Assembly (NCBI GenBank): GCA_958296135.2
Contig: CATQHZ020000001.1
Span: forward strand, 4,096,001 to 4,160,000
Direction: 5' to 3'
Length of the DNA stretch: 64,000 bases
Origin: an uncultured Poribacteria bacterium
Lineage (GTDB): Bacteria; Poribacteria; WGA-4E; WGA-3G
Positions 37,982-50,865 of this stretch are shown piece by piece (within the stretch, counting starts at the first letter, position 1; the number at the start of each line of letters is the position of its first letter). The notes under the pieces are model-generated. The model was not told where the DNA came from and made no database searches. It saw nothing but the letters and a program-made list of their open reading frames with translations. The position numbers were made by a program, and so were the translations under genes.

Positions 37982-39082
37982 ATGCATTTATTTATGCGGT
38001 GCTACCTCGCGATACTCCTCATTTCTGGCGCGATGGGAAACCTCGCCACCGCTAACAGAGCCGATGTGCATTACCGAACCGCTTTAGCCTACCACGCACT
38101 GGAGGAATTCGACCGGGCGGTGGCAGCATACCAGAAAGCCATCGCTTGCGAACCGAATTCCTTCAATGTGCATCTTCACCTCGGCGTTGCGTATTCGGAG
38201 CTTAAGCAGTATCAAGCCGCGCTTGCCGCTTACCACAAAGCCGCCCAACTCTCATCTACCAACGCGCAGCCGCACTATAACATCGGTTTAGTCTATCTGA
38301 AGCAGGGAAAATTGCCTCTCGCACGGGAAGCCTTTGAAAAAGCCATCGCACTTGCCGCTGATTTCGAGGATGCCTACAACGGCCTCGGCGAAGTGCTTAT
38401 GAAACAAGGGGCATTGGCGGATGCTGCGCGTGTCTATACAAAAGCGACGCGGCTCAATCCAAACGGAATCGCCGCACTTGCCGGCCTAGGCAAAGTCTAC
38501 GCGAAGCAGAAACGCTTGCCACTCGCAATTGATACGTTTGAAAAGATTATCGCCATTCAAGCCGATAACACTGCGGCGCACTATCACCTCGCGCAGGCCC
38601 TGATGAAATCCGGAGAACAGGAGAAGGCAGCCGCAACGATGGAATTCTTCAAAGTGCTGCGCCAGACAGCCCTGCTCCTTGAGGAGGCACAAAAGTGGGT
38701 GAAAACGCGCCCGGCAGATGCGAAAGGCTATAACAACCTCGGCATCGTCTACCTCGCGCGCCGTCGCGCTGATAAGGCGATTCAAAACTATCAACGCGCC
38801 ATCGCATTAGCACCGACATTGGCGACGGCGCATTACAACCTGGGGCATGCTTACCATAAACAGGGCAAATTGCACCTCGCGATTGCGGCATATCAGCGAG
38901 CAATCTCTGCCGATGCGAACCTCGCGATCGCGCATAATAATCTGGCTGTCTGCTATATGGACAGGCAAGCGTTAGATAAAGCGCGGTTTCATGCCAAGAC
39001 CGCCGTGCGTCTCGCACCAGATGAATGGAATTATTGGGATACCCTCGCGCAAGTCCAAACGTTGCTCGGTTTAAACAAATGA
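37982..39082 (+). CDS. Tetratricopeptide repeat protein
   Basis: Repeated AHYNLG/AYNGLG..AY.KAI 34-aa units. Confidence 0.9.
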   Translation: MHLFMRCYLAILLISGAMGNLATANRADVHYRTALAYHALEEFDRAVAAYQKAIACEPNSFNVHLHLGVAYSELKQYQAALAAYHKAAQLSSTNAQPHYNIGLVYLKQGKLPLAREAFEKAIALAADFEDAYNGLGEVLMKQGALADAARVYTKATRLNPNGIAALAGLGKVYAKQKRLPLAIDTFEKIIAIQADNTAAHYHLAQALMKSGEQEKAAATMEFFKVLRQTALLLEEAQKWVKTRPADAKGYNNLGIVYLARRRADKAIQNYQRAIALAPTLATAHYNLGHAYHKQGKLHLAIAAYQRAISADANLAIAHNNLAVCYMDRQALDKARFHAKTAVRLAPDEWNYWDTLAQVQTLLGLNK

Positions 39083-42185: not shown

Positions 42186-43436
42186 ATGTTTCCACGACGC
42201 ATCATTTTTGCAGCGATTTCTATCTCAATTGCGGCGAGTTTTCTGCTGTGCGGCTACGAGTTCATCCGTGCTGTTTCCACCTCTCTATTCATTGAGAGTT
42301 ACGGCGCAGAAAACCTGCCGCGCGCCATGGTAGCAGTGCCGCCGAGTCTCTTGCTGTTGCTCTATATCTACGGCCGTCTGCTTTCGCGACTCGGTGCGAC
42401 GCGCACCTTGGCGATAACTTCGCTGCTGTCAAGCGCGTTAATCTTGGGGTGCTATCTCGCGCTGACCCGCGGTGTGCATTTCGCCTCGGCTACCATTTAT
42501 GTCTTCCGCGAAGCATACATCGTGATTATCGTAGAACAGTTCTGGTCCTTCGTCAACAGCACGCTCACGCCGACACAGGCGAAGCGTATTAACGGTCCCT
42601 TCTGTGCCGTTGCCTCGATAGGTTCTGTCGTGGGCGGCGTGCTCGTCGGCAGATGGGCGGAACCGTTAGGAAGTCAAACGCTGCTGCTATTCACGGCAGC
42701 CTCTCTCGTCCCATCAACGATTTTCAGTGGCATCGCCTACACTCTCGCTGGCGAACCGAAACCGACGGTGGCAGAAGCAGGTGGGCAGCACGGGCACCTT
42801 GGGGGCCGAACGCTTTTCCGTTCCAGATACCTCGTCTTTATTGCGTTGCTCATCTTAAGCACGCAGGTAGTCTCTACTGTCCTCGATCTTCGTTTCAACG
42901 GGCTCGCCGAAATCGAGCGACCGGATGTCGATGCAAGAACTGCTTTCTACGGCACTTTTTACGCGATTTTGGGCGGCAGTGCCGCCGTTTTACAACTGAT
43001 AGTCGTTCCGTTTGCGTTGCGGTTTATTTCAGTTCGCGTGATTCATCTCGGCATCCCGATGGTGCATCTACTAAGCGGCCTCGTGCTGACGTTGCGTCCC
43101 TCATTGCGCACGGGTGCATTGGCGTACCTGCTGTTCAAGACGTTTGACTATTCGCTCTTCCGGGCGGCGAAAGAATTGTTCTATATGCCGCTCTCTTATG
43201 ACGAACGGTATCGTGCAAAGCAGCTCATTGATTCGTTCGGCTATCGCCTCGCGAAGGGCGGCAGCGCGGGTATCATTGAACTCGTGCGCCTCGGTGTTAG
43301 GACGATGCCGGGGGCCGCCTTCTCCATCACTGCCATGGTAATGGCCGGTATTTGGACCGGCGTTGTCTCCAATTTGACAACGCAGTATCAGAAATTGGAG
43401 AAATCAGACGAAACCGTTTCAGTTTCCGATGAGTGA
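42186..43436 (+). CDS. NTT/TLC-like (Npt1-related) MFS nucleotide transporter
   Basis: Polytopic membrane protein; EQFWSF..QAKR; YSLFRAAKELFYMP..RYRAK..ID..GYRLAK. Confidence 0.7.
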   Translation: MFPRRIIFAAISISIAASFLLCGYEFIRAVSTSLFIESYGAENLPRAMVAVPPSLLLLLYIYGRLLSRLGATRTLAITSLLSSALILGCYLALTRGVHFASATIYVFREAYIVIIVEQFWSFVNSTLTPTQAKRINGPFCAVASIGSVVGGVLVGRWAEPLGSQTLLLFTAASLVPSTIFSGIAYTLAGEPKPTVAEAGGQHGHLGGRTLFRSRYLVFIALLILSTQVVSTVLDLRFNGLAEIERPDVDARTAFYGTFYAILGGSAAVLQLIVVPFALRFISVRVIHLGIPMVHLLSGLVLTLRPSLRTGALAYLLFKTFDYSLFRAAKELFYMPLSYDERYRAKQLIDSFGYRLAKGGSAGIIELVRLGVRTMPGAAFSITAMVMAGIWTGVVSNLTTQYQKLEKSDETVSVSDE

Positions 43437-43557
43437 ACTGGTTCGGGGGTTACCCATTAAACTTTTATGCGGTATAATAGACAGAGTTTCGGTTTTGACG
43501 CGGCGCACGCGAAGCAGCCTATAATGGTACGCGACACTTGATACAACCGGTTTTCCA

Positions 43558-43899
43558 ATGAACATTTTTTCGCAGCACAAGTTGCGCGATTTTGCACAGA
43601 GACATCCGAACTGCAAATCGGGACTCGCCCGCTGGCGCAACTTGATATCGGCAGGAAGTTTCGGTTCACTCAACGAACTGCGTGAAACGTTTCCGCACGC
43701 TGACCTGGTGAAAAAGCCCGTGGTCCCTCAGCCAGGGCAACGTCGCCCTCGCCTCAAAGACGAAATAAGGTTTACCATTTTCAACATTGGTGGTAACAAA
43801 GCGCGCCTGATTACAACGATACGATATGACTCCCAAGTTGTCACTATTCATGAAGTCCTCACGCACGCCGAGTATGATGCGTGGGCGAAAACGAGGTAA
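43558..43899 (+). CDS. higB: HigB-type mRNA interferase toxin
   Basis: LRDFAQRHP..LRETFPHAD..IFNIGGNK.RLI..LTHAEYD. Confidence 0.85.
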   Translation: MNIFSQHKLRDFAQRHPNCKSGLARWRNLISAGSFGSLNELRETFPHADLVKKPVVPQPGQRRPRLKDEIRFTIFNIGGNKARLITTIRYDSQVVTIHEVLTHAEYDAWAKTR

Positions 43900-43905
43900 G
43901 AAACA

Positions 43906-44880
43906 ATGTTAAGTCCTATCCAAACGACACTAAAGGTATTACCCGTGCCCGTTCTCTCTGCATCCGTTGAAGTGAACCTGCCAGATGCTATTGACCGACA
44001 GCCCCCTTCCTTGAAGCGGCCTGGCCTCCCTGAAGCGCACTGCGTCTCGGAGGCAGCACTATTTCCGGCGAGTGCGGTACCCTGGCTGCTTGAGGTGCAT
44101 GAACTGTTAACCGAACTCGTGACTCGGAACCCTGACGTGCGCCGCGCCACAGTGAATGAGGCCGAATACAAAAAACTCACAACAATCCTGGAGGATTTGA
44201 TGTGGGCTGTCGGTGATGATGAGCAAGACCCTTTATCCTCCTTATTCACATGTGTCGGTAATTTCACGCTCAGGTATGAGGACGAAAACTTTCCAAACTG
44301 GGATGCCCTTTGGCCAGAACTTGAATCGGCGGATGCGGCGGCCGAAGCAATCTCACCGAAGCGCAAAGCCACCGCCTCCCCACCGCCGGGCTGGGCTGAC
44401 GAAGAAGTCGCCCTTGATGCCTTTCTCTCGATGGGCCACTTCTTATGCGAAGCCGGCCAGGTAGAAAAAGCGATAGCTGCCTATGACACCGCCATCCGAC
44501 TGAACCCTCATGCCGCCGAGGCGTATTGCAACCGCGGCAGCGTCCATTATGCCCTAGGCACCTACGCCGCCGCGATGCGGGACTACAATGAGGCTATCCG
44601 CCTCAACCCCGCGCGCGGAGAAAGCTATTTCAACCGCGCAGTGACACACTTTCAGCTGCAGCACTACAAAGCGGCGATTCGCGATTACGCCGCGGCACTC
44701 GCACGTAACCCTGATGATGCAGGTGCCTATATCGGCCGCGCGCATGCCAAGTTCGCGCTGCACCGCTATGCGGCGGCGCTGCTTGATTACGACGCGGCAC
44801 TGCGTCTCACGCCAGATGACGACGCGGTGCGACGCTATCGTCACCTCGCACAAGCGCAAAAGACAAATGGGGAACCGTAA
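43906..44880 (+). CDS. HigA-like N-terminal antitoxin region fused to TPR repeats
   Basis: NEAEYKKL..LEDLM..VGDDEQDPLSSL..VG....YEDENFP, then about 4-5 TPRs; no HTH seen. Confidence 0.7.
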   Translation: MLSPIQTTLKVLPVPVLSASVEVNLPDAIDRQPPSLKRPGLPEAHCVSEAALFPASAVPWLLEVHELLTELVTRNPDVRRATVNEAEYKKLTTILEDLMWAVGDDEQDPLSSLFTCVGNFTLRYEDENFPNWDALWPELESADAAAEAISPKRKATASPPPGWADEEVALDAFLSMGHFLCEAGQVEKAIAAYDTAIRLNPHAAEAYCNRGSVHYALGTYAAAMRDYNEAIRLNPARGESYFNRAVTHFQLQHYKAAIRDYAAALARNPDDAGAYIGRAHAKFALHRYAAALLDYDAALRLTPDDDAVRRYRHLAQAQKTNGEP

Positions 44881-44928
44881 TGTCAGATCGTTCCGCGCCG
44901 TACCAGAATGATTCTGTTCTCCCTTTCT

Positions 44929-44982
44929 GTAGGGCAGGCTCGCCCGAGCCTGCCCATTTGAGCTCAGGCGAGCTCAACCTAC
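44929..44982. repeat. REPIN-like inverted pair
   Basis: GTAGGGCAGGCTCGCCCGAGC ... GCTCAGGCGAGCTCAACCTAC. Confidence 0.65.
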
Positions 44983-45037
44983 AGATACGAGATAACTAAG
45001 TGTCTCTGGTAAATGTCTCTGGCATTGGAGAAAAAAC

Positions 45038-45067
45038 TTGACATTTTAATGGAATTTGCGGTATAAT
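45038..45067 (+). promoter_or_regulatory. sigma70-type promoter
   Basis: TTGACA-18 bp-TATAAT. Confidence 0.7.
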
Positions 45068-45100
45068 AGAATTTATACTGTTTTTAGGAGGACAAATCTC

Positions 45101-45868
45101 ATGATGTCCCAAATTTTTACCGGAACGCAAACAAAATGGATGCTCCTCTTCGTCGGGGCAGTATCCCTCATGATTTGCGGATGCGCAGTGAAACCGCAGC
45201 CGGCTGTCGATGTCTACATGGAGCCGGTGGCGGAACGTTCGCCTGCGCAAATCGATACCGAAACAGGCACGATGACGCTTGAACAAAAGGGAGTCGCCGT
45301 GACCTTGCAGCCGCTCACGGAAGTAGATCTGTTCGCGCTCACCGATGACCCGGGGATAAACCCCTATCTCGTCGTTGAACGGAATGGGGCTGTTGAGCCG
45401 CTCTACACCGTTTTTGAAGTGACGGTTCACAACCTCGATACCCCGCGCGTGCAGGTTGCCGAGGACGCGGCAGTGCTGATTGATAAGAACGGTGCGCAAC
45501 ACGCCGCGCTGCCCTACGATTACTTTGAGCGGCTCTACGATGACGTAGACACCTCTCGCAGCGAGGTAATCGCGCGCCCCTATTATCCTTATCACTACGC
45601 GCCCTACTATCCTTCGTATTATCATCACTCCTACGTTGACGTGGAGGCGTTGGAAGAGGGACGCAGCATGGCGCAGGATAGCATCTTCGCTGGCGGCAAG
45701 TTATTTCGCGGCGCGAAGCGGCGCGGGCTCTTCATCTTCGACCGGCTTGACAACGATGCAACCGAAGTCAGGATGGTTGTCTCAGGCATCCGGATTGTCC
45801 CGGCAGATGGACAACAAGTTGAACTTGAATTTAAGTTTGACTTTAAACAGGTAGTTGCGCTAAAATAA
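45101..45868 (+). CDS. Hypothetical lipoprotein
   Basis: AGGAGG RBS; lipobox-like ICGC; Tyr/His-rich segment. Confidence 0.65.
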   Translation: MMSQIFTGTQTKWMLLFVGAVSLMICGCAVKPQPAVDVYMEPVAERSPAQIDTETGTMTLEQKGVAVTLQPLTEVDLFALTDDPGINPYLVVERNGAVEPLYTVFEVTVHNLDTPRVQVAEDAAVLIDKNGAQHAALPYDYFERLYDDVDTSRSEVIARPYYPYHYAPYYPSYYHHSYVDVEALEEGRSMAQDSIFAGGKLFRGAKRRGLFIFDRLDNDATEVRMVVSGIRIVPADGQQVELEFKFDFKQVVALK

Positions 45869-49388: not shown

Positions 49389-50865
49389 ATGCAGAACACC
49401 CTCTACTTCGGCGATAACCTCCAGGTGATGCGAGAGATGCAAACCCACAGTTACCATCTCTGCTACTTCGATCCGCCGTTCAACAGCGGCCGCAACTACA
49501 ACATCTTCCTCGCCGGCTCCACCGCGCAACGCAAAGCGTTTGACGACATCTGGCGATGGGACGACGCGGCGCGCGAGAATCAGGCCGCTGTTCTCCACTA
49601 CGATGGCAGACACCCGGAACTCGTTGAGACGATGGATAATTTAGCGTTCTGTTTACAATATATTAACTATTGGTTAAGAAGGGGGGGGGAAATCAGAAGA
49701 ATCGATGCGTGCCTATCTCGCCTTCATGGCCCCGCGCTTGGCAGAGATTTGGCGGTTGTTGACTCCGACAGGTAGCGTCTATTTGCACTGCGACCCGCAT
49801 GCGAGCCACTACCTGAAATGCATGATGGACGCAGTTTTTGGCGCGTCGAATTTCCGGAACGAGATTATCTGGTGTTACGCAGGCGGCGGCATCCCGCGCA
49901 AGGATTTCCCGCGCAAACACGACGTGCTTTTACGATACGCCCGCGGGAAAGATGTCATCTTTAACACCGAATATCGGCCCTATGGCGCACACAACGTGAC
50001 AGGCAAAAGGTTCACCGACCGCGGCGGCACCCGTGCGTTGCACTATCGCGAAAAAGGCACGCCCATTAACGATTGGTGGACTGACATCAAGCCGCTGATA
50101 AATCTCTCCAAAGAACGCCTCGGCTACCCCACCCAGAAACCGCTCGCGCTCCTTGAACGCATCATCAAAGTCTCCTCTAACCCCGGTGACATCGTCTTCG
50201 ATCCCTTCTGTGGCTGCGGCACGACAGTAGATGCCGCGCACGGCCTCGGTAGGCATTGGGTAGGCATCGACCTCACCGTTCTCGCTTTGGGGCCTATGGA
50301 GCGGCGGCTCAGCGAACGCCATGGACTTCGTCCGAACGTCGATTATCGCATTGAGGGGTATCCCACAACCTGCCAAGATGCCATCCTCCTCGCCGAGCAG
50401 AACCCGAACGACTTCGCGAATTGGGCAGTCACCCGATTGGGACTCGCGCCAACACCGAACAGCAACGATGGCGGATTTGATGGCACGGGGCGGATTACCC
50501 TATGGGAAAATAGGCACCTCGCCGAGGCGACGCAGACGAAACTGCCTGTCATCGCCGAGGTGAAATCGGGAAGGCGTTTGAACCCGAATCAGGTGCGCGC
50601 CTTCCGCACAGCAATGCGGGATAACGGGGCCGCCATCGGGATTTTCATTACGTTGCACGAAGTCACGCGGGGGATGCGCAACCTCGCCGAAGAGGAGGGA
50701 TTCATTGAGCACAACGGGAAGCATTATCCGCGCTTGCAGTTCTGGCAGATAACGGATACTTATTTTGAGGAGGGACTCATACCGGTGAATTTGCCATGGC
50801 AAATCGATGAACGGCCAAAAGCGGAACGGCATTACGGCGGAGAGCAGACCTATCTAACGACATAA
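49389..50865 (+). pseudogene. Beta-class N4/N6 DNA methyltransferase fused to a Mrr-like PD-(D/E)xK nuclease, frameshifted at a G9 tract
   Basis: ORF1 has GDNL and DPPFNS; ORF2 has GSVYLHCD, YPTQKP, DPFCGCGTT and DGGFDG..EVKS; removing one G at 49681-49689 fuses them (491 aa). Confidence 0.85.

Follow-up and report, generated by a model that had tools for sequence, protein, structure and literature searches.

A predicted HigBA-type toxin-antitoxin pair from Poribacteria in which the antitoxin carries tetratricopeptide repeats and no HTH

Among described toxin-antitoxin (TA) systems, the locus analyzed here is best compared with the HigB-HigA pair of E. coli K-12 (YgjN-YgjM; 5IFG, 6KML, 5YCL), with which it shares the toxin family, the toxin-first gene order and the presence of a common module directly after the toxin. 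E. coli HigB is toxic and cleaves mRNA in a ribosome-dependent manner, as surveyed in PMC11980606, and canonical HigBA, as described in PMC7984235, relies for both DNA binding and dimerisation on the HTH-bearing domain of HigA. A second point of comparison is HigBAC (PD-Lambda-2), likewise built on a HigB-family toxin and an antitoxin with an added element for third-party control. According to the accounts in 10.1101/2024.02.24.581848 and PMC11980606, a phage tail protein sets off one such HigBAC system via the antitoxin's partner. The added element there is a short ChAD tail, read by the product of a separate SecB-like chaperone gene.

The pair studied here lies within a stretch of 64,000 nucleotides from an uncultured Poribacteria bacterium (assembly GCA_958296135.2, contig CATQHZ020000001.1, positions 4,096,001 to 4,160,000), hereafter the window. 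As opposed to the E. coli K-12 antitoxin, its antitoxin lacks the C-terminal HTH and displays an added N-peptide, an extra helix and four tetratricopeptide repeats (TPRs). HTH-based DNA binding and dimerisation cannot therefore apply to it. In place of the ChAD tail and chaperone gene of HigBAC it has a fused TPR array and no conserved third gene. With a probability of roughly three in four, we interpret the locus as a derived, lineage-specific version of the two-gene type II TA system represented by HigBA of E. coli K-12.

The toxin gene and its surroundings

The product of higB matches the Pfam family HigB_toxin (PF09907) with an E-value of 1.2e-21 and 77.1 bits against a gathering cut-off of 27, and a sequence search of the PDB recovers the solved E. 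coli/Shigella HigB chains 5ycl_B, 5ifg_A and 6kml_A at E ~1e-11, the similarity to the first two being collinear over residues 1-109. The gene is thus found where a previous sequence-only reading of the window had placed it (Table 1), and no earlier start is possible, since an in-frame stop occupies positions 43522-43524. PADLOC matches the toxin only, as PD-Lambda-2_A (E 1.1e-17), and holds no model for the antitoxin. The C-terminal T-H-x-E-Y motif is present, and R83, T102, H103, E105 and Y106 are unchanged across 26 homologs. By homology, HigB is a RelE-fold, ribosome-dependent mRNA endonuclease. Most copies in the family are intact and conserve the C-terminal motif residues, and premature stops occur in 10 of the 150 listed HigB matches, with the adjoining N-domain of the antitoxin intact in 9 of these 10; among 150 listed N-domain matches, a single one contains a stop. 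This concentration of stops in HigB, and not in the N-domain, resembles the decay of a toxin and is counted here as support for the TA interpretation, toxicity itself being predicted.

Table 1. Features of the locus, in positions of the window
Feature	Position	Strand	Description and basis
TATAAT hexamer named in the sequence-only reading	43473..43478	+	read from sequence
Second TATAAT hexamer	43520..43525	+	read from sequence
higB	43558..43899	+	113 aa, RelE-fold toxin, E. coli K-12 HigB family (PF09907)
Lengthened basic Pro/Arg loop of HigB	43714..43764	+	residues ~53-69
Antitoxin gene	43906..44880	+	324 aa; N-peptide, helical N-domain, linker, four TPRs, capping helix; no HTH
N-terminal peptide	43906..43980	+	residues 1-25; conserved M-L/S-T/S...Q/P-T..N/D-V/I-L
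Helical N-domain	44056..44328	+	residues 51-141, 91 aa; alignment A2; pLDDT 77-95
HigA-homologous core	44143..44304	+	residues 80-133; profile comparison
Pro/Ala-rich flexible linker	44329..44397	+	residues 142-164; pLDDT <50 at residues 146-162
Four TPRs	44398..44820	+	residues 165-305; Pfam, AlphaFold2 helix pairs, Foldseek
C-terminal capping helix and tail	44821..44877	+	helix at residues 306-321; AlphaFold2; partly conserved

The PF09907 match is split into two stretches by a loop that is the main peculiarity of this toxin. The stretch between F45 and T73 amounts to 27 residues, against 9 in E. coli K-12 HigB and other canonical relatives, and the solved E. coli chains leave 15 gap positions opposite the loop; the insert varies in length among homologs and is conserved in position. 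The insert of ~17 Pro/Arg-rich residues previously pointed out in HigB hence stands as a protein feature. The DNA hairpin (AGGGC/GCCCT) proposed within it is not supported: the RNA fold of positions 43700-43775 has a z-score of -1.81, with 13 of 200 shuffled sequences folding equally well, and its minimum-energy form does not contain the proposed pairing.

The suggestion that the operon has its own promoter fares no better: TATAAT is indeed present, but a consensus scan found no -35/-10 pair 5' of higB on the plus strand, and over 43300-45100 the sigma-70-like scan yields 2 sites where 1.3 are expected. No inverted repeat was found upstream of higB within 43400-43600, and a look-up of RNA data listed none for 43450-44880. 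At the other end of the gene, the TAA stop (43897-43899) is separated by 6 nt from the ATG of the antitoxin (43906), in agreement with the spacing and the 324-aa reading frame originally noted. The pair is surrounded by transport genes and lies outside any defence island; the ORF downstream of it (45056-45868) belongs to no Pfam family. No third gene for a SecB-like chaperone is found 3' of the pair, nor does anything comparable follow its two paralogs.

The antitoxin as a carrier of the HigA module

The predicted structure of the antitoxin is confident for both the N-domain and the TPRs. Pfam TPR families span residues ~165-320, with TPR_1 matching in 4 stretches at E 5.2e-26 (89.8 bits), and AlphaFold2 models the helix pairs 165-182/186-199, 204-216/220-233, 238-250/254-267 and 272-284/288-301, together with the capping helix, at pLDDT 92-98. 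Foldseek aligns this part with consensus TPRs and with the TPRs of OGT (rmsd 1.2-1.7 A, 131-150 columns, 26-31% identity). The linker and the "4-5" TPRs anticipated from the sequence are therefore both there, the count being four repeats plus the capping helix, and the reported lack of an XRE HTH is borne out by Pfam, which finds no HTH family in the ORF at E<=1. Identity in the linker drops to 20-48% among relatives. The N-peptide, predicted to be disordered on its own (pLDDT <50), is by comparison well preserved: its motif opens 28 of 30 aligned N-regions, and it is 64-72% identical between paralogs. The first part of the N-domain, residues 51-79, is an extra helix that is complete only in the long forms from Poribacteria. 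The C-terminal domain found in 363-aa relatives has no match in the PDB.

The relationship between the N-domain and HigA was established by profile comparison. An hhalign run of the A2 alignment against a set of 13 canonical HigA partners gave a probability of 99.3% and an E-value of 2.4e-20 over 54 columns; 12 members of this set are encoded immediately 3' of HigB and carry, without exception, a C-terminal HTH_3, and the set aligns over residues 14-137 with E. coli HigA (5ifg_B; E 9.2e-19). The HigA-like N-terminal segment proposed in the sequence-only reading is thus upheld as a homologous core (Table 1). Direct searches were negative: phmmer with the N-region returned 0 PDB matches at E<=10, the A2 profile produced only chance-level PDB rows and no HigA, Pfam and NCBIfam contain no family for the region, and the ESM Atlas gave no usable match. 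Foldseek with the N-region model retrieved nothing at E<=0.001, with HigA entries ranking 6-13 at E 1.6-2.7, and VIA placed the model against HigA chains at Z 3.7-4.3, on par with unrelated helical rows; the superposition on 6kmq_B (model residues 81-136 on chain residues 23-76, rmsd 2.6 A over 50 residues, Z 3.8) is not significant alone. Hence, the homology of the N-domain to HigA rests on the profile-profile step and on gene position.

On the basis of this comparison, canonical HigA and the present antitoxin share one module, which lies ahead of the HTH in the former and forms the core of the N-domain in the latter. Lacking the C-terminal HTH_3, the antitoxin is therefore best described as a carrier of the HigA module and not as a full HigA member. 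The name HigA is itself applied in one source to a 69-aa protein consisting of the module only. The HigA-like core is short, at only ~54 residues.

Distribution, descent and selection

The genome harbors three paralogous higB + TPR-antitoxin pairs, and the N-domain is found in 106 of 111 further genomes of its family, in which relatives bear Candidatus Poribacteria titles. The search for further pairs of this make-up, put forward with the initial description, has thus turned up numerous examples, and their HigBs fall in a single clade. The N-domain lies nearly always directly 3' of HigB and is fused to 1 to ~18 TPRs, which were detected in 21 of the 23 partner ORFs scanned; a module ORF directly follows HigB at 77 of 80 HigB-anchored loci, a HigB match precedes the N-domain at 31 of 35 family loci, and the gaps between both genes in relatives are mostly 3-7 nt. 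At up to ~18 repeats, the arrays far exceed the need of a single peptide clamp, a point that we count against the mechanism favored below. Narrower queries recover much less of this family: a word-indexed protein search with residues 1-165, which understates family size, returned the protein itself and one cluster at 63% identity, and the single antitoxin protein found no relative in the genome contigs searched.

Long partners are encoded at 23 of 28 Poribacteria-titled HigB loci and at none of the 52 loci from other phyla, where the commonest partner is a module-only protein of 74-93 aa. Absence of an HTH is not by itself unusual, since such module-only partners predominate outside Poribacteria. 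They occur in Verrucomicrobiota, Cyanobacteriota, Chloroflexota, Acidobacteriota, Thermodesulfobacteriota and Latescibacterota, and also in Poribacteria. Like the antitoxin described here, they place the module directly 3' of HigB and have no HTH; unlike it, they comprise the module alone (profile positions ~30-85) and accompany a short-looped HigB. Neither Pfam nor NCBIfam has a model for them, and we know of no paper dealing with them.

In the HigB phylogeny, one branch (99/97), recovered in 100% of 200 bootstrap trees, sets the 37 HigBs with TPR partners apart. All 37 HigBs with a long TPR partner have a loop of 16-27 residues; in all 52 with a short partner it measures 9-11 residues. Three changes always accompany the derived form: the long basic HigB loop, the extra helix that precedes the HigA module, and the conserved N-peptide. 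As part of the best explanation for this pattern, the TPR-partnered form would have arisen once and then radiated, with several copies per genome, within this one family. Module matches number 516 (E<=1e-5, across the phylum) versus 275 HigB matches (E<=1e-8, within the family), and TPR-antitoxins are found without a HigB at three loci (L003, L023 and L032). This excess of modules, together with the orphan TPR-antitoxins, suggests that a role beyond neutralisation may be possible.

Evidence of selection is available for both parts of the antitoxin. Between the three paralogs, dN is 0.19-0.21 in the TPR part and 0.30-0.35 in the toxin-binding domain, and amino acid identity is 66-68% in the former versus 53-54% over residues 51-141, while dN/dS between orthologs is 0.15-0.26 in both. 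Purifying selection acts on the TPR part, and both parts of the antitoxin are functional. Gene conversion was rejected as the source of TPR conservation between paralogs, because dS in this part reaches 1.0-1.3.

As for precedents, among the papers listed on HigBA-TPR, on Poribacteria TA systems and on TPR-fused antitoxins, no title or abstract deals with a fusion of this kind, which supplementary tables could still list. The terms TPR, tetratricopeptide and repeat have 0 occurrences in the main text of the RelE/ParE survey PMC11980606, and TPR is listed 0 times for the NetFlax paper.

A proposed mechanism and competing interpretations

In the mechanism that we favor, HigB would be kept in check by the antitoxin's helical N-domain. 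The TPR array, a solenoid of the peptide- or protein-binding kind, occupies the place of the DNA-binding HTH. Since the HTH is absent, the antitoxin itself is probably no operon repressor. The TPR groove would hold a conserved peptide ligand, for which the candidates are a cell protein setting antitoxin stability, the long loop of HigB and the N-peptide of the antitoxin itself, and through this ligand it would control how firmly or for how long HigB is held. Built into the antitoxin, the TPR part may then play the role that toxin-antitoxin-chaperone systems assign to an extra partner. In STAND/Avs-type defence proteins, a TPR solenoid is the protein-recognition part and is coupled to a growth-arresting effector; the present pair may share this plan, but it has no NTPase switch, and its effector would be a small toxin encoded on its own and bound by the antitoxin module. 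We advance only tentatively the fuller version of this scheme, in which release of HigB would depend on a protein ligand of the TPR array, the pair would be a single-chain counterpart of the toxin-antitoxin-chaperone sensor, and the many paralogs, with 1 to ~18 TPRs, would provide these sponge symbionts with a set of conditional translation switches peculiar to their lineage.

A purely structural role for the TPRs is possible, if doubtful. The groove would here bind the basic loop of the cognate HigB or else the antitoxin's N-peptide, with no outside ligand, and so make up for the avidity that, in HigB-(HigA)2-HigB, comes from HigA dimerising through its HTH; canonical HigBA does dimerise through HigA, as described in PMC7984235. 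The long loop co-occurs perfectly with TPR-bearing partners, the N-peptide is conserved and the TPR fold is nearest to peptide-binding TPRs such as those of OGT and consensus TPRs. The extra helix and the N-peptide, however, accompany the loop just as regularly, which leaves room for a loop partner other than the TPR. The mean pLDDT of residues 10-16 rises from 38 in the N-region-only model to 49 in the full-length model, but this increase is small, and arrays of ~10-18 TPRs seem excessive for one loop. Sensor-gated abortive infection, in which the TPRs would recognise a phage or sponge-host protein, free or destabilise the antitoxin and let HigB stop translation, is the function put forward in the sequence-only reading; it strikes us as unlikely. 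It draws on the match of HigB to the toxin of PD-Lambda-2 and on the HigBAC precedent as published, and the multiplication of copies with 1 to ~18 TPRs by subfamily would fit diversified specificities. Yet the TPR part diverges more slowly than the toxin-binding domain, which argues against a hypervariable sensor, and selection between orthologs is purifying and not diversifying. The position of the locus outside a defence island, the lack of a PADLOC model for the antitoxin and the yield of only 6 distant HigB relatives from viral contigs also speak against it.

Domestication of the module is improbable to a greater degree. Under this hypothesis, the TPR protein would be one of the "eukaryote-like" repeat proteins that serve life in the sponge, a class in which TPR proteins of sponge symbionts are counted (PMC13747020), and HigB would be a regulated RNase or a decaying passenger. 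The existence of orphan TPR-antitoxins that stay under purifying selection (L003), and the broken HigB copies next to a mostly intact partner, can be read this way. Against it, most HigB copies remain intact, motif residues included, and the close coupling of 3-7 nt is retained. Finally, the chance that the locus is an assembly chimera, a one-off fusion or a chance ORF is negligible, and this explanation is ruled out by the paralogs, by orthologs in >100 genomes and by dN/dS values far below 1; in addition, contigs of two runs span 43300-45000 unbroken, both runs coming from the same sample, possibly the source of the assembly.

The usual description of an antitoxin joins a toxin-binding part to a DNA-binding part, and in the interpretation favored here one lineage has swapped the latter for a protein-binding solenoid, kept the swapped design under purifying selection, multiplied its copies and altered the toxin alongside. 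The locus may thus provide a natural test case for antitoxin control without autoregulation, and for the question whether one polypeptide chain can link a TA pair to a protein signal. As a by-product, the analysis brings to light the N-terminal module of HigA, which has no Pfam or NCBIfam model and is widespread as a stand-alone HigB partner of ~75 aa. More generally, TPR proteins are routinely tallied among the host-interaction factors in sponge-symbiont genomics; some of them, at the least, appear to belong to TA modules. If the ligand-gated interpretation were true, part of the "eukaryote-like" TPR proteins would be antitoxins rather than host-interaction factors.

Architecture of the toxin and its antitoxin

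The HigB encoded upstream of the antitoxin cannot start before its ATG, an in-frame stop at 43522-43524 precluding it, and it matches the Pfam HigB_toxin family (PF09907) in two stretches with 77.1 bits against a cut-off of 27. The solved E. coli/Shigella HigB chains align to its residues 1-109 (E about 1e-11); across from residues about 53-69, these chains show 15 gap positions. The protein also matches PADLOC PD-Lambda-2_A (E 1.1e-17), and only six relatives, all distant, were found in viral contigs. The promoter assigned to the pair by the sequence-only reading was not supported: TATAAT occurs at 43473 and again at 43520, but a promoter scan detected no -35/-10 pair upstream of higB. No inverted repeat was found in 43400-43600. 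The DNA hairpin claimed for the HigB insert did not survive analysis, its fold (z = -1.81) being at the level of chance, with 13 of 200 shuffles equally good, and the minimum-energy fold of the region lacking the proposed pairing. A GGTTTTC(C/T)(A/G) motif adjoins the higB ATG (window 43547-43557) and is invariant in the four aligned upstream regions of the window and its paralogs; it is non-coding in the window because of the in-frame stop at 43522.

Coordinates of the toxin-antitoxin pair, its predicted protein segments and its paralogs
Feature	Position	Strand	Remark
higB	window 43558-43899	+	ORF of 113 aa
TPR antitoxin ORF	window 43906-44880	+	324 aa; starts six bases past the higB stop
Disordered head	antitoxin residues 1-50		AlphaFold2
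Helical N-domain	antitoxin residues 55-147		AlphaFold2, pLDDT 77-93
Disordered linker	antitoxin residues 146-162		AlphaFold2
Four TPR helix pairs	antitoxin residues 165-301		AlphaFold2, pLDDT 92-98
Capping helix	antitoxin residues 306-321		AlphaFold2, pLDDT 92-98
Paralog pair 2	contig C1:3477591-3479024		G000 (window's genome)
Paralog pair 3	C1:3796186-3797526		G000

The proposal that TPRs stand in place of the HTH agrees with the family content of the antitoxin, in which TPRs (residues about 165-320) are the only families recognized by Pfam and NCBIfam. In the AlphaFold2 model (20-sequence alignment, mean pLDDT 78.1, pTM 0.73), the repeats superpose on consensus and O-GlcNAc transferase TPRs with an rmsd of 1.2-1.7 Å over 131-150 columns. 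Contigs from two runs of one sample, possibly the source of the window, span 43300-45000 unbroken. In run X3 (depth 14), the contig carries two extra A after 44317, maybe a sequencing error, that would frameshift the antitoxin between N-domain and TPRs; the X1 contig (depth 117) agrees with the window.

Direct searches with the N-region (PDB sequence, domain profile against PDB, fold search and ESM Atlas) showed no relationship to HigA. Residues 1-165 have matches in 105 of 112 same-family genomes, at several places in each, and an alignment from 35 loci delimits a conserved 91-residue domain (A2; antitoxin residues 51-141). Its profile retrieved 814 proteins at E<=1e-3, 241 of them at E<=1e-10, from 1.84 billion representatives; a Pfam scan of 60 of the 150 matches listed detected TPRs in 19 and an HTH (E<=0.01) in none. 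Many of those scanned are 57-150 aa long and hold little beyond the second half of the domain. In one of them, P0138 (135 aa), the protein runs on into a C-terminus that matches the HTH-bearing half of HigA from E. coli (5ifg_B, E 4.2e-8). One module-only protein, of 69 aa, is named 'HTH-type transcriptional regulator/antitoxin HigA' by a source.

The link to HigA was provided by loci anchored on the toxin. Among the best 80 loci of 582 HigB relatives in species genomes, 77 have an ORF that begins only a few bases away from the stop of HigB and carries the module, the part of HigA preceding its HTH. These partners comprise the module alone (74-93 aa), the canonical arrangement of the module with a C-terminal HTH_3 (133-146 aa; HTH_3 in all 12 scanned, E 1.7e-6 to 6.2e-4), and the full 91-residue domain with TPRs (251-845 aa). 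Module-only partners, which no Pfam or NCBIfam model covers, follow a HigB of about 95 aa in at least six phyla, without HTH (L051-L115, e.g. L052:3292-3516, L063:3292-3516). The 13 canonical sequences (A5) match 5ifg_B over residues 14-137, N-terminal part included (E 9.2e-19), and profile-profile comparison aligns A2 with A5 over 54 columns, antitoxin residues 80-133 (99.3%, E 2.4e-20), bearing out the HigA-type N-terminal segment claimed from sequence. The best local structural alignment, of model residues 81-136 on 6kmq_B 23-76 (rmsd 2.6 Å, 50 residues), has a Z of 3.8, not significant alone, and follows the same register. With the module present and the HTH absent, the antitoxin therefore falls short of full membership in the HigA family.

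Distribution of the fusion and changes in its toxin

The architecture is not confined to one locus. The genome of the window encodes four HigBs and five proteins with the module, and three paralogous pairs join a long-loop HigB to an antitoxin of 321-329 aa with four TPRs. Of the 23 family partner ORFs scanned with Pfam, 21 contain TPRs, whose number ranges from one to about 18. The fourth HigB (L018, C1:1612494-1613235, minus strand) is a short-loop protein of 103 aa with a 151-aa partner that has the module at its C-terminus and neither HTH nor TPR. One module protein has no HigB in its vicinity. It is a 206-aa protein encoded at C1:4207175-4207795 (minus strand), downstream of an ORF of 500 aa, and in it the module is followed by two acidic repeats (...AAY-x-DDEPDY...); representatives P0123 and P0136 have these repeats too.

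Across the phylum, the N-domain is found in 136 of 176 genomes: 106/111 in the window's family, 23/29 and 5/11 in sister families, 1/1 in a fourth and 0/23 in the other seven. In five sampled genomes of other families, the nine matches are confined to profile positions about 30-85, and the open frames that contain them measure 76 or 137-141 aa. Relatives bear the record title Candidatus Poribacteria; the 28 loci so titled comprise 23 long (TPR-type) partners, four short ones and one cut by a contig end, and long partners are absent from all 52 loci of other phyla. In relatives of 360-363 aa (L006, L008-L010, L012, L014; e.g. L009:2092-2448), one or two TPRs precede a C-terminal region bearing the pattern D...E-x-K. 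This region resembles HSDR_N_2 weakly (E 1.8e-4; its 22 bits fall short of the cut-off, 25) and has no PDB sequence match; a stand-alone copy of it adjoins locus L015.

A maximum-likelihood tree of 89 distinct HigB sequences with an adjacent module ORF separates, on one branch (ultrafast bootstrap 99, SH-aLRT 97), the 37 long-partner HigBs from the other 52, a split recovered in 100% of 200 bootstrap trees. The root is by midpoint only, and the tree is therefore read as one gain or one loss; given the taxon distribution, a single gain in the window's family is the simpler reading. The loop between the positions aligned to F45 and T73 has 16-27 residues in 37/37 long-partner HigBs, as against nine in 51 and 11 in one of the short-partner HigBs. 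Long partners possess an extra helix (profile positions 1-30) that short partners mostly lack, and also a conserved N-terminal peptide, which 28 of 30 aligned N-regions show. The co-occurrence of loop and partner amounts to one evolutionary event, not 37, because kin are not independent.

Selection, decay and the possible role of the repeats

For one of the paralogs, comparison of its orthologs across three species within the genus gives a dN/dS of 0.15-0.16 for the N-domain and 0.19-0.26 for the TPR part. Among the three paralogs of the window's genome, the TPR part has a dN of 0.19-0.21, as against 0.30-0.35 for the N-domain and 0.24-0.33 for HigB. Recent gene conversion between paralogs is unlikely, since both parts approach synonymous saturation (dS 1.0-1.3 and 1.3-1.8 for TPR part and N-domain, respectively). 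The predicted toxin-binding domain thus diverges along with its toxin, as would be expected of insulated pairs, and the TPR part is kept more constant. This constancy fits better with a ligand common to the paralogs than with a fast-evolving sensor. The repeats might nevertheless sense phage or host. On one side of the pair is a TLC-type transporter gene and on the other an ORF that belongs to no family, after which comes a branched-chain amino-acid ABC system; the surroundings are neither a defence island nor a mobile element. Neither the pair nor its paralogs are followed by a conserved third gene. A further possibility is that the repeats clamp parts of the pair itself, either the HigB loop or the N-terminal peptide, both of which accompany long partners.

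The neighborhood also contains a stand-alone 366-aa TPR protein 5 kb upstream (37982-39082, plus strand), a perfect TTGACA-18-TATAAT site (45038-45067, plus strand) at the start of a downstream ORF without Pfam family (45056-45868) and, about 5 kb downstream, a 386-aa ORF (49705-50865, plus strand) combining N6_N4_Mtase (E 2.4e-38) with the restriction-endonuclease domain Mrr_cat (E 5.8e-6).

The antitoxin might, on the other hand, be a domesticated repeat protein. Of 112 family genomes, 101 contain HigB, with 275 matches altogether, and 15 of the 150 matches listed carry stop flags. Thirteen of these were cut out and two (L027, L030) re-read: five end naturally two codons short of the model end and ten prematurely, at positions 13-93, the adjacent N-domain being intact in nine of the ten. 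Only one of the 150 best N-domain matches has a stop. More frequent breakage of toxin than of antitoxin genes is a prediction for a real toxin, and would support one indirectly. TPR-antitoxins or module ORFs without an upstream HigB match occur at L003 (genome G002), L023, L032 and L011; at L003 the HigB of the orthologous places in G000 and genome G001 is gone, and the antitoxin is still under purifying selection.

Among known systems, HigBA of E. coli comes closest. HigB of E. coli K-12 cleaves translated mRNA and is counteracted by HigA (PMC11980606), which mediates dimerization in HigBA structures and has a C-terminal HTH in E. coli (PMC7984235). Closest in logic is the toxin-antitoxin-chaperone system HigBAC, described as having an added antitoxin element, read by the chaperone, that makes the toxin phage-triggered (10.1101/2024.02.24.581848). 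The literature searched, at the level of titles, abstracts and selected passages, yielded no description of a HigA-module-TPR antitoxin. Homologies, gene order, spread, co-occurrence and constraint are demonstrated, and solid evidence underlies the architecture, its expansion throughout the lineage and the accompanying change in the toxin. In the proposed mechanism, the N-domain would neutralize HigB, an antitoxin without HTH would not autoregulate, and the TPR array may hold a conserved peptide ligand and thereby set the stability or grip of the antitoxin.
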